From Endomicrobiales bacterium (GTDB taxonomy: Bacteria; Elusimicrobiota; Endomicrobiia; Endomicrobiales; JAFGIL01): a stretch of DNA of 64,000 nt. Of this stretch, positions 27,035 to 52,842 are shown in pieces. A program made the position numbers and the translations under genes. Where the stretch lies: contig JAFGIL010000039.1 in NCBI GenBank assembly GCA_016929635.1, positions 3,251 to 67,250 of the forward strand. The letters are read 5' to 3'. Every line of letters begins with the position of its first letter. The stretch's first letter is position 1. The notes beneath the pieces are model-generated. The model saw nothing but the letters and a program-made list of their open reading frames with translations. It was not told where the DNA came from and did no database searches.

Positions 27035-30000
27035 TTAGCCTGCGGCATTGATGGCTTGTTGAAGTGCGGCAATGGCTGCCTGCGGTGCTTCCTCTACTAT
27101 GAAAGGTTCCTGGCGCTGATAGTGCGTAAAAAGAATATTTAAAAGGTCTGTAACTAAAACACCTCTACCTCTATCACCCCATGTCCTAATATCACCAAAA
27201 TTACCAATATAAGGAGCTATTATTTGATGAGGTGATTGTCTCTGAAGCCTTTCAGGTAGAGTGTGTTCGTATTCAACCGAAGTAACTCTTTTTAATACTT
27301 CATTGATATCTATTCCTTCATCTAGGTTTGCTATTTCTATTAGCAGAAGTTTCAAGAAAGCAGATTCATATTCCGGAGCCTCGAACTTTATATCACTAAT
27401 ATATCTTGCTTTTGCCATAGCACATGCTATTCCAACTAAAAATCCTCTAAACTCAGCATATGCATTTACTTGTTCTTCCATATCATCATTATGTCTAATT
27501 CTATCAACTAGCCTATCGAACTCCTGTCTGATACGCCCTTCTTCAGCAAACATTTCAGGCACTTCTATTAACAATCCCTCATCTATTATTTCATTTTCTA
27601 AACACATATCGGAAATCTCGCACAGACGCTTGAATTTATCCGGATAGAAATCCATGTTAACGTCAAGAAGTTCCCCGCTCCGTTTCATGAAAAACGCCTC
27701 TCCGCTTTTACTGCTTTGCTCGAAGCACTCCTGAGGATTTTGCGGCTCATAACGCGTGATTAACCTCATTATTTTTGTCCTGACACCTATTGTAGTAACT
27801 CTTTCTCCTTTTTCCGCCTGACTTAAAGCTCTTTCATAATAATCGCTCGGGATAACGACGCATTTCATATTAACAGCCCTGCTTTTTACCATCCTTATCA
27901 TCCTGTCAAGCTCCCGCGGGCTTTCTATCATAACAGCGTTGTCCTCGCTTAAATCCTGCAGCCCTTGAGGCAATACAAAATATACCTTCTTTATGGGAAG
28001 CTTTGATAAAACTTCCCTGCTGAAACCCTGATACCAGGTTCTGACCGCCTGCTGCTGTGCCGGTGCTGTCATAGCCCTAAAGTCCAGATAGACTTCATCG
28101 TAAGCTATGCCGTTTAATCCCGCAGTCAACATATTGGTGATAAGGTTATTTAATCCCTGCCCCTGCAGCTGCTCCTCCTTAGTTACACGGACAGGCACAG
28201 AAACTTTTATCTTTGCTTGTTTTAATTTTGTCACGGCTGCCTGCAGCTCTGCCGTTTTTTCTGCAATCTCCGGAGTTAAAACTCCCGGAGAATCTTCAAC
28301 GTAAATATCCCGCAGCATTAAAGTGCTTAACGGTGTCCACATGGAATTATCCCTGTCCCTGAGTTCTGTAATACGTTCTGCCAGATTGGAAACGCCAAAT
28401 TCATCCACGCTCATATCCATAACTAAAGCTACTTCCCAGCTTGTTACGGATTGAATAGTATTAGTTAAAAATCCCTGCCATATCTTACGGAATCTTTGCA
28501 TAAAAGACATTCCTCTTTCAAGGACAAGATTAACTCTTCTGGATGCTTTTGCCTGCCTTACAAAACCTTGCATATTTTCGTGCACTCCGGAGGCATCAGC
28601 TATGACTTCCGCATCTCTTAATAAATCTTCTGCTTTATCAACATCCGGAAAAGTGACTTTCAGAGCATCGAAAGAAAGCGTCACGCTTCCATCTTCGTTA
28701 TAAACAGGATTAAATGACTGAAGCGCCTCGCCCGGGACCATGCCCATATTATCGATAAAAATAACTTCGGGCAAGCTCTGCCTGTTGCTTGCCCGACTTT
28801 TTGGCTGGCCCGCAATCAGCATTTCATTTACATCATCGTCTATAATTCCTCTGTAAAGCAGCTGGCATGTAAGCAAATACAGCGTCAATGCTTCCTGGTT
28901 AACAAGCCGCCTTTGTATCAGAATCATGCCCGTAGATTCATTCTTCCAGACATCTATTGGTACACTTCTATCGTTGATTCTCACAACAAGGTTCGGAATC
29001 CCGGTTTGTTTCCTGAATCCGTTCTTCCTTAAATTATAACCTTTAGGTATAAACCCTACTCCGTGAGCGTTCACCCCGGCTTCTTTTAAAGCTGCCAGTT
29101 CCTTCTGCTTGGACTCCAGATTCCTTTCATCATAAACAATGTGGACAGTATCCCTGTTAACCGCGTAAGGATACTGCTGCCTCAACCCAGAAAACCCGTC
29201 CATTTGTGCCTCAACACTTTCCCGGGCTATCCTATTAACATTCGCTGTCCTTCTTGCAGCAAACAGCGCTCTTCTAATTATGTCTCTAATTACATTAGGT
29301 AATATAGAAATTGAGCCAATCACCTGATTAGTATAAGGCGCAACTTCGGCTCTCCATCCGCTTTTCTTTTCTTTATCTCCTGCATTAACTTCATCTCGAA
29401 TAGTACTTACATTTCCATTAGCTACTTCTACCATGTTGCTGGGCATAGCCATATGGTCTCTAAGAATATTCCAGTCAAACTGTTCTCTGCTTAGTTTATG
29501 ATACTCTTGCTTAACACGATATACTATACAATCATCATCCCGCCCCACTCTTTCCAGTATTCCTGCATCGACAAACTCCTGCGCTATGTCCAGAAGCACC
29601 CATTCCCTTTCAATAATAAGGAACTCCTTATTCCATGAAGGGTCATCAACTGCGATTATAGAAAGGATATGATTTCTTGCTTTATCCCAGAAACCAGCAG
29701 TGAACGAATCCCGCAATAAATGTATTGCTTTATCCTTAATTGAATCGATTAATTCAGCTCTGTCATACATTCCTGCATAACCTGCAAGATCTGTTATCAT
29801 TCTTAAGACTATGTCCAAACTCATTAAATCCATATCCACTATATCGAAGTTTACGGGCTTTGCAGTGGCAAGATCCCGCAAATGGCCGTTAATAGAAATA
29901 TTCTGCCTGCTTATCATCCCGTGCGTATAACCCTTTTCATACCACAAAGCGACCTGGCTTGTAACATTTTTTAACAAGAAATCAATATATAAGTCAAACA

Positions 30001-33000
30001 GGGTTTTCTTATCTATTTTCTTTCTGAACATTCCTTTTTTAATAACGCCTTTTTTCTCCAGCAACGACCTTATCACTCTTTCCTGCATCTCAGCAGGCAT
30101 TTCCAGGACATCTTCCAGTGTTATTATATCTTCCAAAGGCTGGGGCTTGTAACTTACAAAAACAGGGTCTACCCAATCAGTATTATTTTTTTCTCCCGGA
30201 ATAAAAAAGTCACCCAGATCTTCAACTCCCACTAAGCCCGTGTTTCTTGACCATACATGTTCCAAGCCAACAATACTGTCAACTTCAGGAATAATTACTG
30301 CAGAGTCAGCACTTGTTAGCTTTTTAGACATGTCACTTCGTTTTTCTGCTTCATCGCGCGCCATAAAACCGGAATAAACCGGGCCTACCGCAAAATTTCT
30401 GCCCGGATTATGGACAAAAGAAGGAGTAAGCCCGATACCATGGTAACAAATGAATCTGTCTTCGCCCTCAATAGTACAGGGATGGAAAAGTGCCCTGCCC
30501 TGATAACCAACCAATTCACCTTCTCTATTCTCAAAAGCTGTCTCAAATAAAACCGAAACTTGATATTTTTCAGGTGAGTCATAAACCCTTCTTGCTTCCT
30601 CTGAATCGGAAGATATAACGAAATATGCCTGTTTCCCGTCTGAGTTAGGCTTTGCCAAAACATAAACAGGATTAAACCAGGGATATTTTTTGCTGATTTT
30701 TGCACCATACTTTACAAGTTCATCGAAGTCCGTTCCACTGCCTTTCCTTGCAACCGGGGGCAGGATGTCAGCAAACTGTCTAAGATGCACGGCTTCATGT
30801 TTTTCTATTATGTGCTTTTTCAGGTATTCCGGCAGCAGGCCAAAGGCAAGAGCATCGATATAAATAACTTTGCGCCTTTTCTCATCAACCAGATTGTTTG
30901 GATCAATACCCGCAATACCGTCGATTTTTTCACCCGGCGGGTTCTCTCTATCCTCGAAATCCCTGAACACATACCCCTGCTTTTCATATTTTTTATTTAA
31001 TTCTTCTATGACTTCCCGGATTTCCAGATTAAGTTCTTCCTGCTTCCGGGATATTGCATCATTATTTCTTTTTGAATCAGAAATGTTTATAGCGTCCTTT
31101 ATATACCCGGACTGATTCATCATTGCTAAAGAACCGGAAATTAAAACCAAGCCTGCGCTTATAGATAATGCCCTGATTAAATACATAATCCACGGCACTC
31201 CTATCCAGTTTCCAACAAGCCACAGAATTACAGGAACCAAAACTGCTCCGATTCCCGATATTACAGCTGCTATTTTTGAACCTCTGGCTGATGCAGGCAA
31301 ATTTGACATCTCTGACTGCATGGCAGCTATTTTTTCCGCTGTTTCTATATCCTCTATGTTTGCAGCAGCTTCCGGGGAAGGTTCGGTTTCAAGCCATGCT
31401 TTAATGATTTCCAGAACTTCATCAATGTGCACACTCTTATCATCTTCAGTGAAAATACGTCCACCTAAAGCTATAACATTTGCATCAAATTTTTCCCTTG
31501 CAACTACTGCAGCATCCACATTGTTTGTTACTACTCCTCTCATACCGGCAAATTTTTCCAAAGACATACAAATCCCAAATCCGGTACCACACTGAACTAT
31601 ACCCAAATCGCTTTCTCCTGATAAAACTATTCGCGCAACTTTTTGGCCGTACTCCGGATAATTTATGTTTTCACCTGCAGCTTTCTTGCTGGCTATTGTA
31701 TCCCTGTCAACACCAACAGGCTGTAAAACTATTTCTATGCCACGTTCCTTTAAAGATAGACCTAATTCTTCCACTAGTTTTTCCTGTAACGCTTCCATTA
31801 ACTCAATGGCTCCATGGTCGCAGCCAATTGCAATCCTTGTCTTACCCGCCTGCTTTTTTGCTGTCGGGCTTGGAGGAACCGGTTCCGGTATTTCCATAAA
31901 CATATCCAATCTTTCCTGGTGCCTTGGCTCTTCTATACCCTCATATGCAGTTTCGAGCCACTCCTTTTCAATCTGCGCTCTTTCTTCCGCAGTGCCTTTG
32001 CTTCTGTCTATTATCAAAATATTTGTGTCATTATGAGCCCTGCTGAGAACGGTTGTGTTTCTTTTGTCATAAGTTATAGTTGGAGTCAGATCCGCAATTA
32101 CAGCCCTGACTGCGCGGAATTTGTTTGCAGCAACAAATGTACCTATAGCCTGTTCTGTTGTGTCGCAATAAATAATCGCCCTTTCTCGTTCCCCTCTTGA
32201 TACTTCCTGCGCAACTTCTACTGCATGCCTTATGTAATCATGATTTATTTTATTGATCAGAGTCTGTAAGGACTCTGCCATGCTATTAGCAACAGGTTCA
32301 GTTTCAGTCTTTAAAGGAAAGGTAACTTTAATGGTATAGTTCTTTTTCCCGCGTTTAGTAACCGCTAGTGCACCGCCCAACTCTTCAAGCACAGCATCTA
32401 TAAAATCAGCTCCTATTTGTTTAAATCTTGTAGGGCTGAATACATTGTTTGTGTCTATTTGAATAACCAGATTTCCATCTTCATTATATGTATTGATATA
32501 AAACTCAAGCCCATTCTGGTTCCTGAAGGGTACGAACAAAGCTAATAAAAGATAAGCAAGTTTATCCTGAGATACATCCAACTCGCCTTCCGCGCGCAAT
32601 CCGGTTCTCACTGTTATATCATAACGATCTGCATAGTATTTTGAGAAAACCAATCCGGATATTTTTGACACAACATCATTTACATCAACAGATCCTCTGG
32701 CTTTATGCTCAAGCAGAAGTTTTATTCCATCTGCAAAATTGCTGACATCTTCCATGCCTTCAATTATTTCTTCAACATTGTCAGGCTCCTGTTCTATTAA
32801 GGCTTTAAGAATGTATAAATTTCTTTCTATATAATCTATTATCTCCTTAAAATGCTCTATAGCACCTTTGCTGTCAACTTTCCCCAGAGATATCTTCTTA
32901 TCCCGGTTGGCAGCAGGTGAGATGTAATCCCATTGAGCCCTGAGTTCTTTAAATACTTTTTTAGCCTTTAAACCTTGTACTTGTAAATCTTCATTGTTGA

Positions 33001-36000
33001 CGATTAACTGACTACCGAAACCATACAAATAAAGGTATTCCAGATAATCCTGATGAGGGAAAATTTCCAGAAGCGCGCGGCGGTCAACATTGGTCGATAC
33101 TGATTTACCCGCTTTTGACCCGGCTAAAGCAAACAAGCCGAAAAGTCTGGCTATAACGTTGTTCCAGACAAGGTGCAAAACAAAAATTGATACAAACAAT
33201 CCAGGAATAGTTAAAAACTGAGGAAGTAAAATGGGAAGCAAGGATGATATGTTTATCCCAAATATGTGAAGCAGTACAGGCGTATGTATTGTTAATGCTC
33301 CTATTAATCCAACACCGAATCTGGCAGGTATACTTGCTGGTTTTTCATCCGGTAGCCACTCCACTAAATCTCTATTGTATCTGAATAATCTTTTATGTAA
33401 CAAACCAAATATTGTATTTAATCCTGCATAAAGCACTAACCTGAAAGTCTTACTCATTAATACATCTTTTATGCTCAAAACAATGCTTGCATCCACTCCT
33501 AAAAACCCGAGAATCAAAGGCACACCGTAAACCACACCTATATAACCAATCCAGAAACCCAAAGATTCAAACAGCGGTTTCCATAAACGGATGAGTCTGT
33601 CCGATCGCTTTTTTTCTTTCATTCCATTTTCGGTTACTGCGAATGCACTGTAAATACACAGCGCCTTCCATAATTCAGTTGCCGGGTTGTTTGCATTAAT
33701 CGCACCTAAATCCCGGTCTTGACTATTATATGAATTGCCTATCATTAGTCCGTTACGCGGACTCTTCTTCCTGAAATACTCTCTTTTTGGATCCAATTCC
33801 TCTAACGTTTCCAGAGAAAGTATTTCAACTTCGGAACCGGGAAACATGGAATGGAGTCTTTCCATGGCTTCCTCATCCTGTGAAGCAACGTCTTCTGCAT
33901 GCTGGCCGCTTAAGAAATAAACAAGCTGGTCTGCCATTAATTGCCATCCTTCATCACCAATGACAGAATCCAACCCGGATATTTCACTTCCACTGAAATC
34001 AACAAATGCCTGATTAAAAGTATCTTTTAAGGAAACAGCCAATTTCTGTCTCCTATCCTCTGCACCTAAATAAACAAAAGGCTCTTCAGTATCCATCCAC
34101 GACAATCTTGTCAGCACAAGAGAAAGTAAATATGCTCCAAAATAGTAGTAAGCTATCTTTTTCGGATCAGCACCTACTAAACCCGTATCTGTCCTATCAT
34201 GGGGCCTTTCGCGCCCTACCGTGGAGAAATACCGACGATTATATCGGCCTTCGGAGATTGCAGAAATTGTTGTAAGTTTTTCAACGTCCGCAAATCCTGC
34301 TAACCTATAATTTGAGAACCTGGCCGATTTCAACGGTGCAGACATCCTGCCGAACAGCATCCAGTTCCAAGAAGCCTCGTCAAGCCTGTTTGCCGCTGTG
34401 TTTGCGCCGGTTCTTGCTCTCTCTTCCCCCCGAAGCATTAATTCTTCATGGTATAAATAAATTGTATCCGGATGTACTATCCCGTATTCTAAAAGCTTCA
34501 TCATATCATTAATAATCATCCTGTTTGCATTTTCAAATTGTGTCGAATCAATATCTTCTCCAAGAAGTTCCCTGACTAACTCCATGTCTGCCTTACTACT
34601 GTCCATTCCGGCTGATCCATCAAGATACATAAGAGTCTCTCTGGTTTCTTCAAGTACCAAAACAGTGTAGTAACCATCTGCCTGTGCTAGGCTGATTTGC
34701 TCCCCGGTCTTAGTCACGGTTTCACTTTCCGGAATTCTTACACGATAAATGCTCCCATCGTTTCCTGCAGGTCTTGCCCATTCTCCTTTTAAACCATCTT
34801 TTATACCCGCTGCCCGTTCCCTGTCTTTAAGGGCATGCAGGAACTCCAGATTATTTCTTTCCCTGGCCAATGCTTCGACATCTTCGTCTTCTTTTTGAAT
34901 CTTAAGGGAAAAATATGTGCCATCCTGCCTTTTATACAGGACTTTACGCCCCCATGTTGTAACATAAGTCCCCATGCGTTCAACCCCTTCTGCAGCATCT
35001 ATAGTTTTAAAAAGACTGTTTACATCCTCATATGCCGGCAATAAATCGGCATCAACGGGTTCGGGTTCTTCCGGAAATTTCACACCCCTGGGCAATGGCT
35101 TGAACTTCAATGATGGGGAGTTACGCAACAGGGAGCGAGTAAATTCATACCAGTTTTCCCTTGCCTGCCCCTCAGCTCTTAAGACTATCGATTGCAAACG
35201 CAAAAACCGTCTTAATACATCCGATCTTACAGTTTGAATAATCTCTCGGACCCCTCTGTTTGCCGGAGCATTAATAATCCTGTTTACTGTTGACAGAGTG
35301 ATATTACCTGACACGGTTCCGATTCTTGCCCTCAGGTTTGCATTGTCAAGCGGAACGCTTTCCAGAATCTCTGCAAGATAAGGGACAGCAGCCTGATCCC
35401 CGATTCTTTCCAATGCACCAACCGCATACATTTTTACTGTATTATCTTCATCATATCTTACCCTGTCAAGCAGAGGACCTACTGCTTCTGTAGTCCTTAT
35501 TTCCCCCAAAGCGTCCGCCGAAGCGAGCCGCACGTCGGGACTCTCATCTGTAGATAATTTTTCAATCAGAATTGAAACAGCCCTTGGACTTCTAATCAGC
35601 CCCAATGACTTAGCTGAAACTGTTCTTACCTTATAGTCCTCATCATTGCGCAGCCTCTCAACAAGATAATCAACCGCTTTCGGACTTCCCTGCTCTCCTA
35701 AAGCCTCGGCAGCAGAAACTCTAACCTCACTGATCGGGTCATTTAACAGGCTATTAGCAAGAGCTTTAAATACTTTTGATTTTCTTACTTTACCCAGCGC
35801 AGCGGCAGCTTTTGCCCGCACATCACCACTTTGATCATTCTCCAGTAGCTCAATAATGAAATCAGTTTCTCTTCTAATATCGGCTTCGCGCATATGCCCG
35901 ATTAAAACGCTTCTTTCATTATCTTTCTTGCCGCTATTATTCTTCAACCAGGCAATTAACTCAGGGAACATAGGCCTATTAAAATCAAGAATGCCATATA

Positions 36001-39000
36001 ACGTAAGATAAAAACCTTCATCCAATAACTCAACGGCAAATTCGGCAACCCTTTGGGTCCCTATGCCGGCAAGGGCATAACCAATAACATAAGATAAGTC
36101 TTTGCTCGGGATTCCGATTGATAAATTCCTATGGAACAAATCTATTATAGGCCCTACTGCTTTTTCATCATTTATTTCTCCCAATAATCGAACGGCAAAA
36201 ATCTGCACGACGATGGCTTCATCTTCATTCACTCTCTCAATAATGACATCAACCGCTTTCGGATATTTCATTTTTACTAATGATTCCATGGCTTCGTTTC
36301 TAACAAACGGATCTGAATCATTTCTCAACCTGTCTAAAAGAATCTCATATGCTTCATCTGTTTCCATGCCAGCCATTGATTTTAGAGTTAGATAACGTAT
36401 ACTTGCATCATCTTTACTTTCAATATATCTGCTTAATATAAATTTATGTATCGCGGTGTCTTTCTTATCCTGTATTCTTCCTATGGCTCTTACCGTTCGC
36501 TGGATAACTTCGCTATCCTTTTCTTCCTTCACTATTTCGCCGAATACGTCAAGGGCTTCCTTATAATTATTTTCTCCCAACCAATCAACAGCCAACATTC
36601 TGGCTTCTTTTTCCTTATTATGCGTTTGTCTCAGCCATTCGATGATAACTGGAACCGCAGGTCTGCCTAATTCAAAAAGGTCGCGAAGTATTTTTAAGGG
36701 ATATCTGCTTGCTATTAATTTCTCAGATAAATTTTGCAGGCGTTTCTCCAATTTCTCGTCTTTTAATTCCTGAATGCGCCTTCTTCTCCATGCCATGAAC
36801 TCATACCAGCTTATCAAAGCAGTAATTACAGGAATAGAAACTGCTATTGCTATCAGTACCCAAACACCCGATGCAAATCCGCTAAAGACTAAAATCATCC
36901 CTATGCCGGCTCCTAAAAATACTGGCAATATGCGGTTAATCAAATATGCCGGGAACTCAATTTTTAAGGTACTTTTTGATTTATCTGGATGGATTAAATG
37001 ATATGCTTCGAATCCTATAATGCCTTGTGCATAAAGAAATGCTTTACCCAATCTCGGGTATTCTGAAAGGATTGCATGTACGAAAGGATTAACATGAATT
37101 GTATTTTTACTTGCTTCCGGAACTTCAAAGAAACCTGTTTTTTCTCTTGAAACGAATTTTATGCCCTCTATGCCTTTTATTAATGTTTCCTTTCCTTCAG
37201 GGCTTGCTCTCATTCCAAGAGCCCGAGTTATCCATACTACTACGTTACTCCTGCCCATAAACCATACCGGCCATAATAAAAGGGCTGCGGTTAATAATAT
37301 GACAAGAGGTAAAGAAGCGGCAGAAGCCATCGATATTTCCTGTGTTGCAAAATATCCACCTTCTCTTTCCTTAACGGAAACAATTCCGTCATTGCCCGGC
37401 CCGTCAAACCAGTAAAGTATCTTGTAATCCCCCGTTCTTTCATCATGAACACCTGCTCTTACTGTATATTTGAATGTTCCGGTTTCAAGCGGCGTAAAGG
37501 TAATCCCATACTGCCATACTTCGCGGCCTTCGATGCTGCTTATCTGTCTTAAAGGTGTCATCTTATGAGCCCGCCATTCTCCCGTGAAATTAGACCACAG
37601 CTCCACGGTTGCAGCGCGCGGCGATAAATCATGAATTCCTAAATCAACCGTTACGGTTACTTCTCCCCCCTGCTCCACATTGGTTATTACAGAACGGCCC
37701 GGCTGCATATTTTCTAGAGAATCAATTTTCCCGGCTTTGTATACCGGCAGGTATAAATGATTGTAATAATCCTTAACCATTCTTACCGCAGACATTTCGC
37801 CTTCGCTTGATTTAAACGCATTCCAAGAGACATCTCTCCATGCGTCTGCATCGTTATAATAAATATCTGATATCTTCCTCAGCATGTCCATTAGTGCTTC
37901 CCTGTTGTCTTGGGCCATCATAAAACCGTTCCCATTGCCTGTTTCAGGATCAAACTCTTTAATATGCTCAAGAGGCGCTCCGTCCTGAGAGTTAGCTGAA
38001 GGCACCCCGTTTATCGAAGCCATCTGGAAGCTTGTACCTGATGCTTCTTCCCTGAGCCTCGGTATATGTAATATGAAATCTCCTCCGGCAAACAACATAC
38101 GGTTAACGGATAAATCGCCTTCGTCATATCCGGGAATATATACTATTTTTCCGGGATACTTTTCCTGTAACGATTTTATTGATTTAATCATCCACAATCC
38201 GTAATCTCCATAGGGATTTCCTGCAACCACAAGCTGCATGCCAAGCCCGCCTTCCTCTTTATCCTTTAACATAAGATCTACAATCCCATCATCACTTAAT
38301 ATCATCCACAACCTTTTGTACTCCACCATCCTTCTGGTAAACAAAGCAACCGGTTTATCTTCGTCAAGTTCCACGCCGGTGAGCTCTTTTACTCTTCCAA
38401 TCATATCTCCTTTTAATCTCTTTTTGACTTCAGCCAGCTTTGCTTTACTCCTCACCTTTTTCAAATCAGGATGCCTCCAGAATCCTATGTGAGACCCGTT
38501 TGTTACTGAATGAATGACGTGAGAAAACTCCGGGAACATGTCGCGAGAAACTTCTTCGTGTTTTTCGCTAACCCCATAAATCATACCATGATCACCCTGC
38601 ATCAGGTTCATAGCTCCCTGGGTTAGCTGCATCCTGCCGTCTCTTACAAATGCTCCCCTGTACTTATCAGGTATTCCTGTCCGGTTCCACCAGCCTTCTT
38701 CATAGCTTCTTAATGCTGCTTTTACAGGGGTATGCGTGGCAAATACATATCGTGTATCTTTGAAATGCTCATCATCCATAGCAAAAGGCGCTGTAAATGA
38801 GGTAGCTGCTTCATTCATATGTATTACTGTAGGTTGAATTTGTAATGCTTTTAAAACCTCCACGGAACCCTTACCGAGAAGCAGCTCCTGCCTGAATCTA
38901 TCCCAAGGCCAATCCGGGTACAATTCATAGTTGATACTCGGACAATCAAGATAATATACGGTTGAAGCACCTTTTTCTCCTTTTATTACCTGTTTCCATA

Positions 39001-42000
39001 CTTTTACCTTTATTTTTTCACCAGTTATATCTAACTCCACTTCTAACGGAACTTCTTCGCCTCTTTCATCACGTGCCATTACCTGTTCTATTCCATCTAC
39101 CTTGCTGTAATCTGATTTATAGAAACCCCTGGTATATGTACCATTTTCCTGTTCTACCGGATGCCTTCCTCCCTGATATAAAAGTGTCATAAATATCATG
39201 TTCGAATCAGCAACGTCTGATGCGGCATAAGCTGTATCAGCTGCCAGCTTCCCGAGCCCGCCGGCAAAAACCGTATTTTGTATGGCTATTTCTGAGGTTA
39301 CATATACAATCGGTTTCTGCTTTAGTTCATTAGGTATGCCTGCGATCAACCTGTTTTTTATAGAGTTGTATAGAGGATTAATTATTACATTAAAAGTCAT
39401 ACCTACCAAACCACCTACAAAGTTTATCACAGGCACTACCGGCAACAGGATTATATTCACTGCATAATGCGGGACTACTGTGAGGGATTCAAAGAATGTC
39501 AGGTCCATTTTCAAATTTATGATTCCTAATAAAATCATGTATATAAATGAACCTATCCATAAACCAGGCGAGATTCCTGCTAAACCTGCACTTACCAATG
39601 TAGCTACACTTACTATGGGCAGAGCTATGCTTAATCCGTATATTACTAATGTTACAAGCCCAAGCCACCCGGCATACAAAACTGATAATTTTTCCCCTTC
39701 ACGGGCATGGCCTTGTATAAACTCCCTAAAATTCCATATCTTCGGAGCTTCATGAACGCCTGCAATGCTGAACGAAACAATGCCAACCACTGCTTTGAAC
39801 AATGCATAAACCCACAAATTCAATCTTGCAGGCGGTTGTTCTATATCAACATCTGTATTTCGTTGCACCCATTGCCAGAATTTTGAATTTAATACAATTT
39901 CTTCGGCTTGGTACTTTGTATCAGTCTGAATCCCGTATCCAGCAACACGTGATTCTTCTGAAGTAATAATAGTGACTTTAAGCCCTATCTTTTTTCCTTC
40001 ATCTAAACCCTGCAGAACATATGAATTCCACATCGATTTAATATACGATTGAAAACCCTGTACATTTCCTCTTTTTGAATTGACAATGACTTCAATGGTC
40101 CCCCTGGGATATCTGGACGTCCTGGCCCATTTTACATCATATACCTTTACAAACATTCTTCTGGCTAAATCCTTAATTACCGCTGTAGCTTTTTTAAGAA
40201 CAAGTGCTTTTTCTTCCGGGCCGAAATCTTTTATTTCTTCAGTTCTTTTTGAAACAGGGCGCGCTTGAGGTGTTCTATCAGATAACTCGCCGGTTTTTTC
40301 TAAATATTTAATTACTCCATTAAAAGTAATGTCATCCCTTATAGAGCTGAGCAGATATCCTGCAGGCCAGTCTTCCTTATCCAGAGAGCCGTCTTCTAAA
40401 AGCTTTACATAGAACGGATGCTCTTCCCATTCCCACTCGATACCTTCAAGATCAATCCCATGCCTTTCAACAATTATGCCATACTTCTTCTCCTGAGCGT
40501 ACTTTGTCAAACCATCTGTTTTTATATCTACCAGACTAGGGCTTGAGGCTAAACCATCACGTCTAAGCAGGATATTGAATGGCTCTGAAACAACATCCTC
40601 CATTCTTGTCTCTTCCCTGAAATACTCAAAAACTGCAGACACAAAAAGAGGGGTCTTGCCTGAACCAAAAGTATCTACAAACTTTACCCTTTTCCTTCCT
40701 GAAGCAAGAACCCCTGTGTCCAGAATCTGCCTGTAGAGCCTGCTCGCCTGTTCAAAAGCCTCCAGGTCGCTATCAAACAATCTTTTGGCCCGTGCATTAA
40801 ATTCTTTTTGAAACGCAGCAAAGTCATCTTCCCCAATATCTTCCTTAACCGATAAATATACACCATGCATTTTAGAGTATATCTCTTGTTCATTTTTAAA
40901 CGGATAAACTAATCCGGCCCTTTTCGGTCCGTCTCTGATCTCCTGCATATAAACATCGGTTTCAAATAAATAGCCTGCATCTCTGGCTATATAAACAGCA
41001 AACACTTCATCAGAACCTTCATGTATTATATTATCAACAACTGCTGCTGCTTGCCTTGATTTTTCAACCGTTCCATCTAAATCCGTAAAATCATCCATAG
41101 AGGCAACAAGTGAAAAGCAATCTCTAAACCTTTCCGGGGAAACACCCTTCCTGTCCAGATAATCTTCTACAAACCCATCAATAATGCTGCTAAGGATTGT
41201 CTTACCACCAAAAATCTCTCCCATAATCTCCTGAACTATTCCGACTTCCAGTCTTTCTTGTTCAGTTATGTCTCCGGCTCTTACTTCGGCCAGTTTCCTG
41301 CGAAATCTTTTTCTCATTTCTGTTCTGTTTATTGCATTCCTTCTGCCTTTTGATATCTCAGCAGCTAATCCCGTATAAGCATCTTCAAGCTCTTTATGAT
41401 TCATATTCGCCGTTACAGGAACATCCCACGGTTCTGAAGGGAAACATTCCTTTCTTATTACTTCAAGCATAAAATACAGTTTTCCAAATCCCCTTAATAC
41501 AACATCTGCAACACTAGGCAATAAATCCAATGTCTCCGTTCCTGTGTACAACTCGAGAAATCCCCGCGCTCCTGCAATCGAAGTCCTTGACCAATGGCTG
41601 AAGTGACTCAAAAATTCATCCATATTTAAAACTTCGCCTATTGCCACTATATTTGCAAACTCAAAATTTATTCTATCTATTGCAACAAGCAGATCATTAA
41701 CACTCTGCCGAATTAACTCCATATCAGCGGCTTTGCCCCTGCTACTCTCTGCCAATATTCGGTTTATGGTTTCTTCAACGACAGATGTTTCCTTCTCAAT
41801 ATAAGAGATTAACTCGTTTAATCCATTCCTTAAATCGCTTTCTTCCCATGCCCTGCCGTAATACTGCGTAAACCACAGCAAAAACCACTGGCCGGCAAGC
41901 CTTTCTGCAAGCTTAATATTCTCCGGGTAGTACTCGGCAAGTTTTCTTTGCATCTCTAATTCATGGAGGAACTCAATAAAATGATGGAAATTATCAGTGG

Positions 42001-45000
42001 TTCTTGACTGGGAAAGCTGCCCCGGGTTTACTCTCAATTCTTTCAAGAGATATTCATCAAACAATCTTCTGTTTGATGACCCTTCAATGTTTATCGCCAT
42101 GTATTCGTCTGCTTCATGCTGTCCGTTTAATTTTGCAAATTGAAGGTTACGATGTTCTGTATCCATTCTTGTATCTTTATATCTCTTGTTCCATAGCTCC
42201 GGAGAACCGATATTTTTTAACCGATCAATAAACTCTGTATTCTCTAAAATCTCAACTCTTTGCTCTGAAACTTTTCTTGTAACAGTTGCAATGCCGCCAT
42301 TTTGCGCTGTGCCCATAAGATTTTCTGTTTCGCTGAATTTGACCTCAACTTCACTTATCGGGCATGCAGCTTCACCTTCAAACACTTCCATTGCGCCCTT
42401 TTGTAAAGCCTCTTCAAAAGAAGCCAATTCCGCTGTCGTATCTATTAGCCCATATTCCATAATCGCAATAGCCGCATTATATATGAATCCGCGGTGAGTT
42501 TTATCGTATTTAGACAAAGCTTCTGCAAACTCTTCAACTGTGCCGACATCTCTTCTAATGTCTCTTAACTCGTAAAACAGCTGCGGAGAGAATATATGTA
42601 AAAAATACAGTATATCTGTATCACCGGAAATAGAAAATGTAAACTCCGCTACTTTTAACGCCATATTCCATGCCAATGCTACTGGCTCTGCTTTTGGTGT
42701 TGAGGTACCGAGATCATTTTTTGATTCTTCTTTATCTAGTAATATCCCCAGAAGCTCTGAAGTCTCCCTTGGGCCGGAGACCCATGCACAATAAACTCCG
42801 GTTTTAAACACATCCCGTGCAGCGCTACCTCTGTGCATCGAACCATCAAAGTATATTGCACTCTTCCTGCTAAATCCATTATACCTGAGCGTTCTTAAAA
42901 TTGTATCTGCCTTATTAGTCAGGCTAATCTGAATATAATCATGCATCGGGGATATGAGGGGCATTGCATGATAAATTTCCACCATTGCAGACATTGCCAG
43001 TTCAAGCTCATCTTCTGATAAATCATAGTGCTGGAGCATCTCTTCTCTTTGAGAGGACATAAAGCTGCTGACTTCTTCGAGAAAATCATCAGGATCAGTT
43101 CCCGGACGCTCTCTTTCAAGTGCTTCCTGATTCAGATATATTCTGCCTTCATAACCCATTCTATCGTCTCTTCTAAAGAATTGCCCGTATTCTGATTCCA
43201 ATACTGCCTGAATTATATCCTGCTTAAGTGCCCCAAATAAAAACTCATTAGTATCCACCCGCATTATTGGTATAGTTCTTTCTTCTATCTCGCTTAACTC
43301 GCCCAATTGAGTGACCCTGTATACTTTTAAGCCTGATTCTGCATGCAAAGAAAACAATGAACGAAATTCTTCTTTATCTTTAATATATTTAATAAATTTA
43401 TCCAGATATACATATATATACGAGGCCCGAGGAGTATCTGTTTCAAATGCTGCTGTTGTTACTATCTCAACTTTTATCCCCTGTCTCATTAGTTCAAGCA
43501 TTAGTTCAAAGTTGGGATTATCCTTACGCATATACATAAATTCATAATCGTAACCACCCACCAAAGTCCCGTCCAAATCAAAAAATGCTACTTTAACACC
43601 TCTTGCTTTTGCCGCCGCAACATTTAAAAAGTTATAATTTCTTTGCCTTTCATCTTTTGATACTAAGCCTTCCCTTATCGATTTCACCCCCAATGCCATT
43701 GGATTAAAATGTTTATCAGTTCTACCGATTTTTATTAATTCACGATTGAGGGATATCAAATCTTTCAGCTCGGAATCATTCATATCGCTTCTTGGTTTAA
43801 ATGGAACCTGACGCAGGTAAAAAGCAATATTAAATACATACTCTTTTAAAGCATATGTTTCTGCATATTCGGAAAGTTTTTGGATTACTGCATTATCTAT
43901 ACGCTGGTCCTGGAAAATATTAATAAGCGCCATTACTTCATCCACGTTCCACGTCCCGGGGGTTGTTAGTAATATATTGAAAATTCCTTCATGTATTGCG
44001 TATCTTTCATTTACTGTTTTTAAAAAATCTAATACCTGCTGGCCATGTTTATCCTTAACCTGCCTCCACTTCTCTTCCAATTCAGTTTGCGATGTGCCAA
44101 AAACCTGTATCTCAATAATCCTCGCTAACTCCTCTTCTCCGATTTCCTCCGGATCAAAAATATCTAGTAAATCTTCAATAGATTTTCTTAATTCAGGCCC
44201 AAAAATTCTCGGCGACTCACCCCTGTTTAGTTTATATTTATAGTCAACGTATAAATTACGTATCTTAGTCTGTAATTCTACTTCTCCTAAAATATGTGCT
44301 AAAAATGCTAATCTTTTTAATGATTTAAGCCAATCCTCAACCGGTTTGTCTTTATTTGATAACTTGAAACCATTAGTATAGTTTCTTTTATAATGAGCTA
44401 TTACATTATTTATAATCTCATCTCTGCTCATCTGTTGAATTGACTCATTCAGGATAGTTAAATCCCCATAATAACCTGCAAATGGATCAATATACGGTTT
44501 TTTTGAAACCCCGATATCTATTGTTAGTTCTGGAATCCCCCTGCCTGACACGGTTACATTCGCACCTTTTTCCCCAATTGTTACTTCAAAACCAAATAAA
44601 CGCAATTGATTTGCAAACTCCTTTGCCAGCTCCACGCGTAATTCATTCATCAATACTTTAGTTAATTCGACATCTTCTAATCTTAAACAAATCCTTGTAT
44701 CAAGATCACTAATATAATCCCAATCAATCTGATCATCTGAATTTATATCAGTATATGCGCTCCCGAATACCTCAATAAAAAATCTTCCCTTGAAATTATA
44801 TCCTTCCAGCAACTTGTTAACGGATGTCTGCAATATTTCAACCACCCTTACATCCCCATCCTGAGATTCTTTAACCGGCAACATATAAGCTTCATTAATT
44901 GAGACTGTTTCGATATACCCTATTGGAGTGCCATCAAGGGAAGTCTCTATCCGTTTTGCCCTGACATGATATGTATCAACCGAACGGATAGCAGGCGGTG

Positions 45001-48000
45001 CTATATCAAGAAGTTCTTTTTTTGTGGCTTTAGGCCTTTCAATTCCCGGTAAAGCCGGAATATAAACAAAACCGGCATCGGGTGAATCATCATCAATAAT
45101 TCTGAAGTCTGCATCAATATGTGTGGAGATTGGATTAAAACAAGGTAGAATGACTAAATCCTGCTCAATACTTAAATCTGCAGGCACTTGCGCTAACTCA
45201 ACTAACACAGGAGGGCCTCTAACATCCTTGCTATCTTCTAACCATTTCAGCATATTTGCTTTTATATCATCACTAACAACGCCTGCAATCCAGTAAAATA
45301 AATCAGGATAATTATTATAAAGCGCTTCGTAGATTTCCGGATTATACGGATCATTCTCTACCATTTCTAAGAATTTTTTGACATCTCTGCCCCTCTCACC
45401 TTTTTTCATAAGAGATTCTGGTGTTATGCTTAAAACCATGCGGATCGGCTCTTCACCGGTGAGGATATTTTTAAGAAATCTTCTGCTTTTTGACGAGTCA
45501 CTATCAAAAAATAATCTTGTAAATTCCCTTTTCATCGTACGGTTGGAAGGGTCATTCAGCGTTTCTATAAATTTAATAACTTTGCCATATTTTAAGCCAT
45601 ACTCAGAGTGTTCGATTAATTCCTTTGCTGTATTTGTAGTACTTACAACATAGTTTTTTATTTCTATAAAATATAACTGGCCGTCCTTCCTTGCCACAAT
45701 ATCTATTTCCGCTGTAACCATAGATAATCCCAGGTATATTATTTCAAAACCGGCTCCTTCAAGGGCTTCTGCGTGTTTAAGCTCCCCCAATTCTCCGAAT
45801 ATACTTGTACTTCTTTCATAAACAACGCTCAACCCTGATTCTATCCTGAATATCTTATTTTCCATGCCAGGAACATTTACAAATTTTTCTATAAGGCTAA
45901 AACTTTCTTCGCTTAACACATCAGAATGATAGATATTTCTCGACGCCTTTAATAATTTCAGAATTAATGCATATTGTCTATTTTCAAGTATTTTCCTAAA
46001 CCAGTCAGCTTTCGCCATTTTTAACAAGAATAATAACAGTCTAACCGATGATGTTTTTTCCGGTATGTCTATTAATTTTTCCAACGTCTCCAGTTCTTCT
46101 ATATCTCCTGACAAAATAGCAGCAGCGAATCTTGCTTCTTGGTCTTTTTTAACTAATCCGCTTTCTCTTAATAGATCAAAAATCCGATCCAGGATTTCAT
46201 ATGCTGTTTCCAGTTTTGTAGATGATAGTTTTGTCCCATCCAAATTTTCTATTATTGATTTTTTATAAGGTCCTTCAGGTATAGCATGTAAATCCAAAAA
46301 TTCTCTCAATTTTTCTTCCATATTTGGATTAAGATTTCTTCGGAATATTATTCTACACTGCCTAACCTGCTCTTTAGAAAGTCCTAATTTATGTACAATT
46401 CTCATAAAATCTACGGTTTTCTGTTTAAAACTAGACAACAGAGCTTGACTTTTTTGTGCTTCAGAAAAGATTATAGGAGAATCTGATAGGCTGGATTCCC
46501 TCTCAATTAGCGTAATAAAACTTGATACTAAAGCCGCTCTTCTTTCAACTTCTGCAATGGTTTTTGAATTTTTCAAAATATATCCTATCTCCTCTTTATA
46601 TTTAACCTCAATTCCTAGCTCTGCTAATTTTTGTCTAATTTTATGTTCATTGCTTGTAGGCAATGTTGAAGCAACTTTCATCCACTTGGGGAGTTTGCCA
46701 ATTGAAACCAGATACAAATATAATGAATTCCATATAAAATGCGCTAATGTGCTTGCTATGTAAGATATTAAAGGCGAAAGCAGGGGTGATATTGGCAGGG
46801 TAATATACGAAACTAAAATATAAACTGAGGTAAATATAGTAGCAGGTATAAAAATCAATAAATCTCCAGCTGTTGGAGGTTCTTTCTCAACTATCCATCT
46901 GACAATTATATGTATTGCTGAAAAAACTATTATGCTTGCTGCCCAGGATATTAAATAACTGTATGCGTTCGCTCCCAATAAAGAGAAAATGCCTTGTATT
47001 ATTAAACCTCTGAGCAAATACTCTTCCCAGAAAGGCGCTGCCAGAATAGTTGCAATATGAGCTTTTGTGCCTTCCCCGAGCCATCTCTTTGCTATCGGGT
47101 CAACCACCGAACCGGGTTTGGAAGTGATACGAGCAATTAAATCAGCCAGCCTGCTGCCAGTCCCTGGAATGGAATCTGATATATCATCAAGACCGGTAGC
47201 CTGATATATGTCTGTCTTTTGTTCTGTTTCGGGATCAAACTGGTTTATGTCTCCGGTTTCGATGCTGTAAATAAAAGTTTCCGGGTTCTGGAGATCGCTG
47301 CAGGTAACCGTAATTAATATTGAATCATCCCCTTTTTCTTCCAGTCCTATATTTAAGCCTGAGCCCTTAAAAGTCACATCCAATATCTCCTGAACTTTTT
47401 CTATACCTCCTTTTTTGACTTCGGCCCCTAACTTTTTTACGTTCTCTAAAACCTCTTTATCAAGAATTGTTTTGGTATAGACCCTGCCCGCTAAAACCTT
47501 TTCTCCGGGAGATGACTCGTCGGTATGCATTAATCTTGTTAACGTTTCAAGCGCCAGCATGTCAACAGGTGCTGGCCCGGAGATATTAGACAAAATCCTG
47601 CTTTGCTGCTGAATCAAATCAGAATATACTGATTCGGCAAATGTTGTATCCTCCGTTACATTTGGAGTGATTACAATATATGGAACACCTTTTTCTTTAA
47701 ATATCCCCTTTAAACCTGATGTATGGAAACCACCGGTAATAAGCACAACCACATTCTCGTAATCAGTAACTGGTAATCGGTCATCAGTTTGTATTTGTTG
47801 ACTGATTACTGATGACTGATGACCGATTACTTTGCAGTTTGCAAACAGGCAGTCATTTCTTTTCAAGTTTACCGCATAGTAATCATTTAAAAGTTGCAAA
47901 TATGCTGAGATTCCGGAAAGTTTGCCGTTACCAACGTAACGCGTCCATAATAGCTCAAATTTTGCGAAGTTTTTATTTATATATTCATAATCTTCGGCTG

Positions 48001-49819: not shown

Positions 49820-50767
49820 TTAGGTGTGTTTTTGGCACATATATGAGGCCAGTTTGATCGCTTCAATCATTGGTTTGGGGTCAGCGGTGTTCTTGCCTGC
49901 TATATCAAAACCTGTTCCGTGACCCGGGGATGTGCGTATAAAAGGGATTCCTGCTGTTACGTTTACAACTTTTCTTGGATCCAGGCACTTTAATCCTATC
50001 ATTGCCTGGTCATGATACATAGTGACCAATAAGTCAAACTCACCTTTTTTCATCTTAACCCAGGCGCTGTCACAGGGGATCGGCCCTGAAATATTCAATC
50101 CCAGATCCTTCAAAATATTTACAGCGGGTAAAATGAACATCCTGTCTTCTTTTCCTAAAATACCGCCCTCTCCTCCGTGAGGATTTAAGGAACATACTGC
50201 AATTTTAGGGTTCCTTATGTTCAATCTTTTTTTGAGGAATTCTGAACTCATAAGAGTCGTATTTTTTATTTTATCTATTGTAAGGTTCCTGCCCACCTCT
50301 GAAACAGGCATGTGCCGCGTAACCATGGCTGTCCGGAGCTTACCGGCAATCATTAACATCGCAAACTCTTTTGAGCTTGTTATGGCTGCCAAAAGTTCGG
50401 TCTGCCCGGGATAATTAACCCCCGCCAGTTTCATTGCTTCCTTCGAAACTGGGGCGGTGACCATGGCGTCCGCAACTCCGTTTTCTGCGACCTCAACTGC
50501 TTTAAGCAAAAGTTCATATGAATACCTGCCCGACTCTTTGGAGATTCTGCCCGGCTTAATTCTTTCCTTGTTATCAAAAGAGACTTCCAAAAAGTTTAGT
50601 TTGAATTTTTTCTTTATGTTTTGATAGTTCGGAATTAACTGGCGGTCACATATTACGATTGGTTTGCATGCTTTGTAGATATCTTTGCTGGAAAGAGATT
50701 TGCTTACAACTTCAGGTCCAATACCTGCCGGATCTCCTATGGTAATTGCTATGCGGGGAAGTAACAT
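49820..50767 (-). CDS. pdxA: 4-hydroxythreonine-4-phosphate dehydrogenase
   Basis: IAITIGDPAGIGPEV N-terminus, plus HDQAMIGLK and TSPGHGTGFDIAG motifs. Confidence 0.9.
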   Translation of the reverse strand: MLLPRIAITIGDPAGIGPEVVSKSLSSKDIYKACKPIVICDRQLIPNYQNIKKKFKLNFLEVSFDNKERIKPGRISKESGRYSYELLLKAVEVAENGVADAMVTAPVSKEAMKLAGVNYPGQTELLAAITSSKEFAMLMIAGKLRTAMVTRHMPVSEVGRNLTIDKIKNTTLMSSEFLKKRLNIRNPKIAVCSLNPHGGEGGILGKEDRMFILPAVNILKDLGLNISGPIPCDSAWVKMKKGEFDLLVTMYHDQAMIGLKCLDPRKVVNVTAGIPFIRTSPGHGTGFDIAGKNTADPKPMIEAIKLASYMCQKHT

Positions 50768-50849: not shown

Positions 50850-51902
50850 TTATTCGAGTTCGTTTATTTTAATAGTTGCCTTTGATCTTAGTTTTTCAAT
50901 CCACTTTTCGTATTTTTTCTGAGCATTTTTCTGATATAAATACTGCTGCAGGTCAGGTTGGGCATCTTCATATTTAAACTTGCGGCTGGCTCTTTTCTCT
51001 TCCACCTTGATAATGTGATATCCAAAATCAGTCAATACGGGTTCTGAAATCCCGCCAACGTCAAGGGAAAACGCGGCTTTTTCAAATTCCGGGACCATAT
51101 CGCCCTTGGCAAAATACCCCAAATCACCGCCGCGGTTTGCAGAACCTGAATCCTCTGAGTATTCTTCCACCATATCCCTGAAATCAGCTCCATTATCAAG
51201 TTTCCTTTTAATCTCCTTTATCTTCTTGAGAGCCGCGGATTTCTCCTTCATGGACGCATTTTTATCCAGCTGAATTAATATATGGCTTGCCCTGATTTGT
51301 TCAGACGTCGCACGCTTAAAGATCTGGGCCAGCTTTTCAAGATCCTCTTCATCCTCTTTTTTCAATCCCAGGTTCTTTCCGTCCATTTTTGCCTTAATCT
51401 GGTCAAACAATTTCTTGGTCTGTTCTTCGGTCGGCGTTTCAGTCTTTGCTTTTATCTCCTGTTCGGTCAGTTTCATAACCATCAGCTGTTCCTTGATTCT
51501 TTTTTCGAACTCAACCATTGAGATATCTTCTTTTTTTAACTCGCTTTGAAACTCGGATTCCGTTGTAAAACGGCTTTTCACCTGCTTTATGCCTTCCTCA
51601 ACATCCCTTTTTGAAACCCTTATCTTCTGGTTCCTGGCTTCCTGTTTCAGAATCCTGTCATCTATCATCTGGTCGAGGAGCCTCTGTTTCAACTCCCGGG
51701 TTTTCTCGGGAGTCTGTTCTCCAAGGGGTGTTGCCATTTTATATTGTTCAAGTACCGGCTCGACAATTTTATCAAACTCAGATAGCATAATTGCCTCACC
51801 GTTTACTATAGCCAGCGTCCTGTCAACGACCTTGGCGCTCAGATAATTAAAGGAAAATATAAATAATAATAAAGCCAGAAACAAATAACGTAAAACAAAC
51901 AT
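50850..51902 (-). CDS. surA: SurA-like periplasmic chaperone / parvulin-type peptidyl-prolyl isomerase
   Basis: Signal peptide, SurA_N-like helical region and a PpiC parvulin domain (ASHILI...GGDLGYFAKGDMVPEFEKAAF...GYHIIKV). The synteny surA-pdxA is conserved. Confidence 0.7.
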   Translation of the reverse strand: MFVLRYLFLALLLFIFSFNYLSAKVVDRTLAIVNGEAIMLSEFDKIVEPVLEQYKMATPLGEQTPEKTRELKQRLLDQMIDDRILKQEARNQKIRVSKRDVEEGIKQVKSRFTTESEFQSELKKEDISMVEFEKRIKEQLMVMKLTEQEIKAKTETPTEEQTKKLFDQIKAKMDGKNLGLKKEDEEDLEKLAQIFKRATSEQIRASHILIQLDKNASMKEKSAALKKIKEIKRKLDNGADFRDMVEEYSEDSGSANRGGDLGYFAKGDMVPEFEKAAFSLDVGGISEPVLTDFGYHIIKVEEKRASRKFKYEDAQPDLQQYLYQKNAQKKYEKWIEKLRSKATIKINELE

Positions 51903-51927
51903 TTATGCCCTCCCGAAAATTCAAAAA

Positions 51928-52842
51928 TTATTCTTCAGTTTTATATTCTGCGCCCATCTCATCTTCATCAATCGATTCAGATTCAAACGGTATCTGTGCA
52001 ATTGCATCATTGTCGATTTTCATGTTATATCTTTCTTTAACCAGCTCAAGCCATGCGTCAAACTTGTTTTTTTCCAAAACTTTAATAATTTCGTCTCTCG
52101 CATCTTCCAATGAACGCTCAGGCAAGACCTTTTCGCTTATTTTTTCAATAATATGATATCCAAACTGCGTCTCTACTACATCCGAAATCTTTCCTTTTTT
52201 TAAAGGAAAAACCACTTTTTCGAATTCAGGTATCAAATCACCCTTCCTGAAAGGGCCGATCTCCCCTCCGCGGCTGGAAGATATGGGATCAATGGAAAGC
52301 TCCCTGGCAACCTTCCCGAAATTTTCGCCGGATTTTATTCTAGACAATGCTTTTTCTGCATCTTCCCTTGTTGCCAGGAGAATATGCCTTGCTTTTATCT
52401 CCAGGGGCTTTTTATATTCAGCTTCATGTTCCTGGTAGTACTTCTCGATTTCATCGTCGGATGAACTGATCTCCTGTTCATGCAAATCCTTTATAAAAAG
52501 CTCAACAAGGAGGCTCTCTTTATATTCTTCAAACTGTTTTTTCTGGTCTTTTTCGAAACCTTCAACAGCTTCCTTATAATCTTTCCTTTTATCGTACTTC
52601 TTTTGTCTGGCTGCCTCAACAACAGCTCTTTCCCTGGATAACAAGTCAATAAACTGCTTTCTCCCGGCAGAGGTATTCAAATAGCTCTTTAATGTTGACG
52701 GGGCGTTATTTATACGTTCTTCAACCATCTCCAGTGTCATTTTATCGTTGCCTACCTGCAAAACAACTTTTTTCTTATCAGACTTGGCGCAAGCCGATAA
52801 TATAACCATAAATAAACAGCTAAAATATAAATATTTTGACAT
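51928..52842 (-). CDS. PrsA/PpiC-type parvulin peptidyl-prolyl isomerase lipoprotein
   Basis: A lipobox-like ILSAC, then a parvulin domain ARHILL...GGEIGPFRKGDLIPEFEKVVF...GYHIIEK. Confidence 0.7.
   Translation of the reverse strand: MSKYLYFSCLFMVILSACAKSDKKKVVLQVGNDKMTLEMVEERINNAPSTLKSYLNTSAGRKQFIDLLSRERAVVEAARQKKYDKRKDYKEAVEGFEKDQKKQFEEYKESLLVELFIKDLHEQEISSSDDEIEKYYQEHEAEYKKPLEIKARHILLATREDAEKALSRIKSGENFGKVARELSIDPISSSRGGEIGPFRKGDLIPEFEKVVFPLKKGKISDVVETQFGYHIIEKISEKVLPERSLEDARDEIIKVLEKNKFDAWLELVKERYNMKIDNDAIAQIPFESESIDEDEMGAEYKTEE

Follow-up and report, generated by a model that had tools for sequence, protein, structure and literature searches.

A phosphorylase-fold domain without its cofactor lysine is conserved in giant proteins of Elusimicrobiota and Omnitrophota

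Can a phosphorylase fold that has lost the lysine of its cofactor still act on sugars? This question is raised by a 64,000-nucleotide stretch of an Endomicrobiales genome (contig JAFGIL010000039.1 of assembly GCA_016929635.1, positions 3,251 to 67,250; this whole stretch is called the window hereafter). It carries an intact open reading frame (ORF) of about 22 kb (27035..49171, minus strand, as are all features described below within this ORF), which encodes a giant protein of 7,378 amino acids (AA). In this protein, a domain related to the alpha-glucan phosphorylases of family GT35 reads methionine where the lysine that binds pyridoxal phosphate (PLP) is expected. The protein is identical to MBN1621709.1, publicly named 'MAG: HEAT repeat domain-containing protein [Endomicrobiales bacterium]' (MAG, metagenome-assembled genome); only the HEAT repeat is named there, and the GT35-like domain is absent from the public annotation. 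Until 2024, glycogen phosphorylase (GP) was the textbook enzyme that strictly needs lysine-bound PLP, and a sequence-only reading of this DNA took that premise to conclude that the domain is non-catalytic and possibly glucan-binding. The comparison of the domain with its relatives suggests that the lysine-less state is a conserved one, and leads us to consider that the pocket may still work.

The GT35-like domain, of the GT-B type, extends from AA 3270 to AA 3813 (37733..39364, limits of the hidden Markov model envelope). The GT35 motifs on which the sequence-only reading had relied are all present in the frame of the giant ORF. They are the glycine loop GGLGKLAAD (AA 3304–3312, 39236..39262), HMNEAA (AA 3451–3456, 38804..38821), FATHTPV (AA 3477–3483, 38723..38743), GVSEKH (AA 3533–3538), VTNGSH (AA 3556–3561), FTRRMVEYKR (AA 3611–3620, 38312..38341) and the 14-residue cofactor motif EASGTSFQMASING (AA 3709–3722, 38006..38047). 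Two of its positions need a trivial correction: it had placed the cofactor motif at 38021..38062, a range that encodes PRLREEASGTSFQM, and its end points for the segment, 37740 and 39315, are one base out of frame, the codon boundaries being 37739 and 39316. The codons of M3717 (ATG, 38021..38023) and of A3455 and A3456 (GCA and GCT, 38804..38809) are where it had put them.

In the cofactor motif, F3715-Q3716-M3717 stand in place of G-M-K, with M3717 at the position of the Schiff-base lysine. In the HMMER alignment with the GP of Segatella copri (ScGP, PDB entry 9l6i), M3717 falls without gaps on K609 (EASGTSFQM versus EASGTSGEK), the residue that carries PLP in that enzyme (PMC12912991). A3456 (38804..38806) falls on the histidine of the HCNEGH motif of 9l6i, the equivalent of His377 of the rabbit enzyme. 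Both losses announced by the sequence-only reading, lysine to methionine and histidine to alanine, are therefore real. A shift of the alignment that would bring another lysine into the cofactor motif was rejected, as the alignment is gapless and there is no lysine between E3709 and G3722. As judged from its sequence, the domain of the window cannot attach PLP at the canonical site. In ScGP, residues H316, R507, R508 and K513 contact substrate or product (PMC12912991). H3480, in the FATHTPV motif, corresponds to H316, while R3613, R3614, Y3618 and K3619 correspond to the phosphate or substrate ligands R507, R508, Y512 and K513; all are retained.

Profile searches place the domain close to the edge of its family. 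It matches TIGR02094 (alpha-glucan family phosphorylase) with 169.8 bits, below the cut-off of 191.7, and PF00343 (Phosphorylase) with 19.8 bits, below the cut-off of 27. The N-terminal half matches the Pfam family Glyco_transf_5 (PF08323) with 26.9 bits, above the gathering score of 22.7, but ordinary short GP1 phosphorylases also have this match, which is therefore non-discriminating. TIGR02095 (GlgA) aligns across the domain with 61 bits (E 8e-17; cut-off 328 bits), and no match to Glycos_transf_1 (PF00534) was found on the C-terminal half. The best sequence match in the PDB is 9l6i (E 1e-18). An AlphaFold2 model of the domain, made from a 121-sequence alignment, has a pLDDT of 87.8 and a pTM of 0.83, most of the catalytic core being above 90, and predicts a GT-B fold. 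Foldseek returned 9l6i first with this model (E 6e-41; 9l6i and 20yr at E about 1e-40), followed by E. coli GP, MalP and GT5 starch/glycogen synthases, the last with template-modelling scores of 0.73–0.81 normalised to the target. The GT35-type fold proposed earlier is thus supported by the model and by its top structural match, and the segment is an intact GT-B domain that belongs to a compact, divergent, short GP1/TIGR02094-like branch of GT35, near the GT35/GT5 boundary.

ScGP, which belongs to 'clade 2' (TIGR02094), is the best match of the domain in both sequence and structure. The two share the GT-B core and the GGLG, HTP, TNG, RRxxxYK and EASGTS motifs, including the equivalents of H316, R507, R508, Y512 and K513, with 20% identity in the structural alignment. 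They differ at the two sites described above, K609 with PLP and NEGH in ScGP, M3717 and A3456 in the window, and also in their architecture: ScGP is a free-standing pentamer of 852-AA chains with an N-terminal helical domain, whereas the domain of the window spans about 545 AA inside a 7,378-AA membrane protein. As the sequence-only reading had proposed, a beta-sandwich follows the domain (AA ~3815–3934, 37370..37729, from the AlphaFold model) and hydrophobic, presumably transmembrane, segments flank both sides. These form a cluster upstream of the domain (AA 3117–3264, 39380..39823) and a single segment downstream of the beta-sandwich (AA 3945–3975, 37247..37339), both called by a crude Kyte–Doolittle hydropathy scan, which does not decide membrane orientation.

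Is the lysine-less state an accident of this protein? A MAFFT alignment of 272 domains, in a set enriched for relatives of the domain of the window, has in the cofactor-lysine column K in 192 sequences, R in 32, T in 17, M in 12 and S in 9. The lysine is present in none of the 10 members of the window's clade. The histidine is found in 98% of the 186 lysine-bearing relatives with a GMK or GQK motif and in none of the seven clade members compared, and it is also absent from several lysine-bearing relatives (P0134, P0135, P0162, P0056 and P0257). The clade comprises about 10 relatives with 40–61% pairwise identity (P0001, P0002, P0122, P0123, P0124, P0126, L002, L004 and L005), of which L002 comes from an Elusimicrobia MAG and L004 and L005 from Omnitrophota MAGs. 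Scans for further members yielded four loci from genomes and one close locus from metagenomes, most of them on short contigs. All clade members read EASGTS[FY]Q[MI], all those that cover the histidine site read NE[AS]A, and GGLG, HTP, TNG, RRxxxYKR and EASGTS are kept throughout. Since the same substitutions are fixed across these relatives, the lysine-less state is, on the strength of this alignment, a conserved one and not decay. Sequencing error and pseudogene formation were rejected as explanations, the sequences coming from several MAGs and metagenomes and the ORF being intact.

Within the clade, 120 of the 544 positions are invariant, and 50 of these are at least 90% conserved in the lysine-bearing relatives. 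These 50 include GGLG, H3480, T/N/G 3557–3559, R3613, R3614, Y3618, K3619, R3620 and E3709–S3714, and the clade shows no variation at any of the residues that bind orthophosphate and the glucosyl unit in solved phosphorylases. At 15 other clade-invariant positions the residue differs from one that is otherwise highly conserved; the clade-specific changes include Y to F before GGLG, PAGHD to KAALR after HTP, NGV to YGV, WLN to ILH and DGWW to DGAP. The alignment thus suggests a pocket that was remodelled and then held fixed. K3308 (39248..39250), just after the GGLG loop, is a lysine in all eight clade members that cover it, where the lysine-bearing proteins have M, V or I and the K-to-T/S clade described below has F or Y; it may act as a relocated lysine or bind free phosphate. 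Two tryptophans (that of DGWW and that of a downstream GW, in the columns of AA 3733 and 3750), at least 95% conserved when the lysine is present, are replaced in the clades with M, with T or S, and with R at the lysine position, and these columns may be tied to the cofactor pocket.

Proteins of the phosphorylase fold that lack the lysine have been described elsewhere, and the phylogeny indicates that the clade of the window is not one of them. In a neighbour-joining tree with 100 bootstraps, the deep order of which is provisional as the method is distance-based and the branches are long, the K-to-M clade and the K-to-T/S clade each have a support of 100. A common lineage with the published K-to-T/S phosphorylases was rejected, the M and T/S sequences being joined in 0 of 100 bootstraps, and the tree indicates that the K-to-M clade lost its lysine independently of them. 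Instead, the M clade is sister to the clade with arginine (support 92), and these two clades cluster with proteins that carry the lysine and already have an aromatic residue in front of it (YQK, YMK, FMK), among them a protein from a Sulfolobales MAG (support 97). There would thus be a second, independent lineage of lysine-less phosphorylases, K to M with its K-to-R sister, beside the active PLP-free K-to-T lineage. The K-to-M clade has in addition lost the sugar-binding histidine, but purifying selection clearly acts on its phosphate and glucose site.

The sister clade has arginine at the position of the PLP lysine, in the motif EACGTS-x-Q/M-R, and keeps the NEAH histidine. Its members (P0127–P0129, P0136, P0142, P0147, P0160, P0177, P0179, P0204, P0217, P0246 and others) are mostly proteins of Omnitrophota MAGs, of 0.5–7.7 kaa (thousand amino acids), many of them multidomain and 1.7–7.7 kaa long. 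Their names are mixed (glycogen/starch synthase, amylo-alpha-1,6-glucosidase, PRPP-synthetase-like), and no description of this clade was found in the literature searched.

What distinguishes the clade of the window is thus the methionine at the lysine site, the loss of the histidine, and the part that the domain plays in giant membrane proteins, of which it is the conserved module. When the whole 7,378-AA protein was compared by BLASTP and phmmer with L004 (at least 3,873 AA), L002 (at least 1,990 AA), L005 (at least 1,945 AA) and P0122, the region of AA ~3275–3815 aligned. Beyond it, only P0122 shares the beta-sandwich together with a weak N-terminal match, and the K-to-R protein P0147 has a weak N-terminal match. 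The GT35-like domain is the best-conserved part of these long proteins; the giant or multidomain proteins from MAGs of the two phyla, Elusimicrobiota and Omnitrophota, are otherwise unalignable and have no other conserved module in common. In Omnitrophota MAGs, relatives of the domain were seen in proteins 1.7–7.7 kaa long, and a study of very long membrane-anchored proteins of Omnitrophota describes a similar design, multidomain proteins studded with transmembrane segments, with sequence-unique regions and few recognisable domains (bioRxiv 10.64898/2026.06.07.730766). The protein of the window differs from these in coming from Endomicrobiales (Elusimicrobiota) and, with 7.4 kaa, in lying below the 10-kaa threshold given there. 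In the passages of that study consulted, 'phosphorylase' appears only in methylthioadenosine phosphorylase, and a GT35-like module is not described.

The partners to which the domain is fused in its relatives point to glucan metabolism. In P0122, which has the motif FQI, the domain and beta-sandwich are followed by the start of a GH13 alpha-amylase catalytic domain, and in the K-to-R protein P0142 the domain is followed by a GlgA-like GT5/GT1 pair. In L005 (Omnitrophota MAG contig JAHKAP010000003.1, 1-5835) it is fused in one frame to Enzyme I of the phosphotransferase system (PEP-utilizers), HPr and a methyltransferase; in E. coli, HPr is known to regulate GP (PMC13324651). NCBI names of the relatives are inconsistent (phosphorylase, glycogen/starch synthase, hypothetical protein), and those of the K-to-R proteins include 'glycogen/starch synthase' and 'amylo-alpha-1,6-glucosidase'. 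With these fusions the link to alpha-glucan suggested by the sequence-only reading is plausible, and the domain is probably glucan-related. The beta-sandwich, modelled separately (pLDDT 84.8), is also present in relatives P0122, P0130, P0142 and P0147. It has no Pfam match, and its Foldseek matches are generic immunoglobulin (Ig)-like/E-set folds, with weak ones to CBM21 of PTG (E 4e-4, template-modelling score about 0.43) and to the GlgE N-domain (1e-3); it is an unproven candidate for a carbohydrate-binding module.

P0130, a lysine-bearing metagenomic relative of 4,246 AA with the motif EACATSYAK, combines the domain with PHP, UDP-glucose dehydrogenase (E 3e-65), GT2, PRPP-synthetase-like and HD domains; long proteins of this kind look like concatenated metabolic enzymes.

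The GP of Methanococcus maripaludis (MmGP), in which threonine replaces the lysine, was found to be PLP-free by absorbance, fluorescence, cyanohydrin assay and mass spectrometry, with no non-covalent PLP, and nevertheless phosphorolyses glycogen (bioRxiv 10.1101/2024.09.29.615707). In a model of MmGP bulky residues fill the pyridoxal pocket, and its authors propose that a second orthophosphate replaces the phosphate of the cofactor (bioRxiv 10.1101/2024.09.29.615707). A 2026 phylogeny reported lysine replaced by Thr, Gly or Ala in a GP1 clade of ~550-AA proteins of Flavobacteria, Cytophagia, Chitinophagia, Akkermansia and Gastranaerophilales (PMC13324651). The view that lysine-linked PLP is indispensable for GT35 catalysis is therefore outdated, and the loss of the lysine alone is uninformative on activity. 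MmGP and GP1 clade VIII (K to T/S/G/A) have in common with the domain of the window a short GP1-type fold without the Schiff-base lysine, the retained phosphate and glucose ligands, and the bulky residues proposed to fill the pyridoxal pocket. They have Thr or Ser at the lysine site, preceded by G-M, whereas the clade of the window has Met (or Ile), preceded by F/Y-Q; the T/S clade keeps the NE[AG]H histidine and has F or Y after GGLG, where the window has NEAA and GGLGK; and the T/S proteins stand alone at about 550 AA, unlike modules of giant proteins. Among 119 relatives of one K-to-T protein, the motif is GMT or GMS in 118, with the histidine kept; NEGH is likewise found in 118, and all read GGLG[FY]. 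A search with P0206 for the M. maripaludis sequence returned only Bacteroidota-type proteins.

These comparisons lead us to favour, with a rough probability of 40%, a PLP-free module that still binds phosphate and the end of a glucan, with glucosyl transfer probably retained. The pyridoxal pocket would be filled by the new bulky side chains, while phosphate (or glucose-1-phosphate) would still be bound by the domain, together with the terminus of an alpha-1,4-glucan chain. Glucosyl transfer without PLP would most likely persist, free phosphate taking the place of the 5'-phosphate of the cofactor as proposed for MmGP; in the absence of the O6-binding histidine, the activity would probably be altered or weaker. 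Anchored in the membrane between the hydrophobic clusters, beside the beta-sandwich, the domain might process or hold a glycogen-like glucan within a large multi-enzyme polypeptide. The strict retention of the phosphate and glucose ligands, the conserved core and the fusions to glucan enzymes argue together for a working pocket rather than a dead relic. Of the sequence-only proposal, the glucan link can be kept; the absence of catalysis does not follow from the sequence, as the ligands are invariant, MmGP is active and the histidine is lost elsewhere. Several points weigh against our preferred reading. For PF00343 as for TIGR02094, the score of the domain stays below the curated cut-off. The loss of the lysine being independent of the MmGP-type T/S lineage, that precedent transfers only by analogy. 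The pocket appears remodelled at 15 clade-fixed positions, and the clade is known from sequences and a predicted structure. Finally, whether the domain can reach cytoplasmic glycogen would depend on its membrane orientation.

Only slightly less probable, in our estimate, is that turnover has been lost and that the cleft binds alpha-glucan and/or phosphate or glucose-1-phosphate, for glycogen docking or as a ligand sensor. Two independent active-site ligands, the lysine and the histidine, were lost together and many other conserved positions were remodelled; pseudoenzymes often keep their ligand-binding residues. The Ig-like beta-sandwich that follows has its weak similarity to the glycogen-targeting CBM21 and to the GlgE N-domain, although its identity as a carbohydrate-binding module is unproven, and P0142 has a GlgA-like catalytic domain of its own beside the GT35-like part, to which catalysis therefore need not fall. 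However, MmGP is active despite the loss of its lysine, the histidine is also missing from lysine-bearing relatives, and no residue of the phosphate-binding set varies at all, a stricter conservation than glucan docking alone would need. A decaying relic or a sequencing or assembly artefact without function is effectively refuted: the change from K to M takes a single base (AAG to ATG), but the same substitutions are fixed in about 10 independent sequences, the 22-kb ORF is unbroken, no other part of these proteins is as well conserved as the domain and its fold is predicted with confidence.

Might PLP still be bound, non-covalently or through a relocated lysine, for which the clade-invariant K3308 would be the candidate? 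The residue in the K3308 column changes in step with that at the cofactor-lysine position and the residues that bind the 5'-phosphate of PLP are retained, but the pocket has the bulky F/Y3715 and M3717 in place of G and K, and MmGP holds no non-covalent PLP; we regard this as quite improbable. The rabbit and E. coli phosphorylases have an arginine just after GGLG together with a normal lysine, and a cationic residue there need not be compensatory. A low probability is likewise given to a shift to Leloir-type chemistry, in which a transferase of the glycogen/starch synthase kind would use ADP- or UDP-glucose as donor, with the nucleotide at the PLP site. The GT5 synthases (A. thaliana SS4, 6GNE; E. 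coli glycogen synthase, 2QZS) are compact GT-B proteins of similar size that share with the domain the Glyco_transf_5 match on the N-terminal half, the glycine loop, the Arg/Lys pair and the catalytic-loop Glu. Their strong structural matches, the GlgA profile match and the NCBI name 'glycogen/starch synthase' of some relatives all speak for such a shift. The TIGR02094 match is far stronger than the TIGR02095 one, however (169.8 versus 61 bits), EASGTS is the GT35 form of its motif, Glycos_transf_1 is not matched on the C-terminal half, and ordinary short GP1 phosphorylases match PF08323 as well. The lysine of KxGGL and the histidine of HDWH are residues with recognised roles in GT5 enzymes, and in the window they are replaced by Phe (F-A-G-G-L) and Ala (NEAA). 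A broader and rather unlikely proposal is that the K-to-M and K-to-R clades together make up a lysine-less branch of the phosphorylase fold that is new to the literature, at the core of giant membrane-anchored multi-enzyme proteins of Omnitrophota and Elusimicrobiota, with a chemistry unseen in characterised GT35 enzymes. This could be PLP-free transfer with a remodelled -1 subsite which, deprived of the O6-binding histidine, accepts a different sugar or glucan, or it could use a cofactor on K3308. As the one conserved module of these otherwise unalignable proteins, the domain offers, in the form of a soluble module of about 670 AA, a tractable experimental handle on the role of giant proteins in two candidate-rich phyla.

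The remaining ~6,700 AA of the giant protein contain, as recognisable parts in Pfam and PDB sequence searches, only the HEAT repeats and an RpiB/LacB-like sugar-phosphate isomerase domain (AA 5780–5932, 31376..31834; Pfam E 9e-41). The latter keeps the cysteine of CGTG but reads AREKFDAN where RpiB structures have SREHNDAN, the His-Asn pair being replaced, so that it may be a second altered enzyme domain in this protein. A region near the N-terminus (AA ~115–525, 47597..48829), after a signal-like hydrophobic segment, is weakly common to P0122 (1,299 AA) and P0147 (4,313 AA) and has no Pfam or PDB match; its pairing with the GT35-like domain may be a recurring one, seen in the window, P0122 and P0147. 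The string FFDLDGTLV at AA 1863–1871 (43559..43585), in a region for which Pfam reported no match, resembles what we take to be motif I of HAD phosphatases (DxDGT).

Glycogen genes were sought around the giant ORF within the window and none was found, its neighbours being housekeeping genes. Two genes upstream lies a gene for PdxA, an enzyme of PLP biosynthesis (49820..50767, minus strand), adjoined by two genes for SurA-like peptidyl-prolyl isomerases (50850..52842) in what is presumably the common surA-pdxA arrangement, and its proximity to a domain related to PLP enzymes is probably a coincidence. A separate PtsI gene (60957..62678) lies 12 kb upstream of the giant ORF. At the other end of the window, two adjacent ORFs on the plus strand (58..2721 and 3045..6302) encode large chains of carbamoyl-phosphate synthase, a full-length copy of 1,085 AA preceded by an 887-AA ORF with only the oligomerisation, second ATP-grasp and MGS-like parts.

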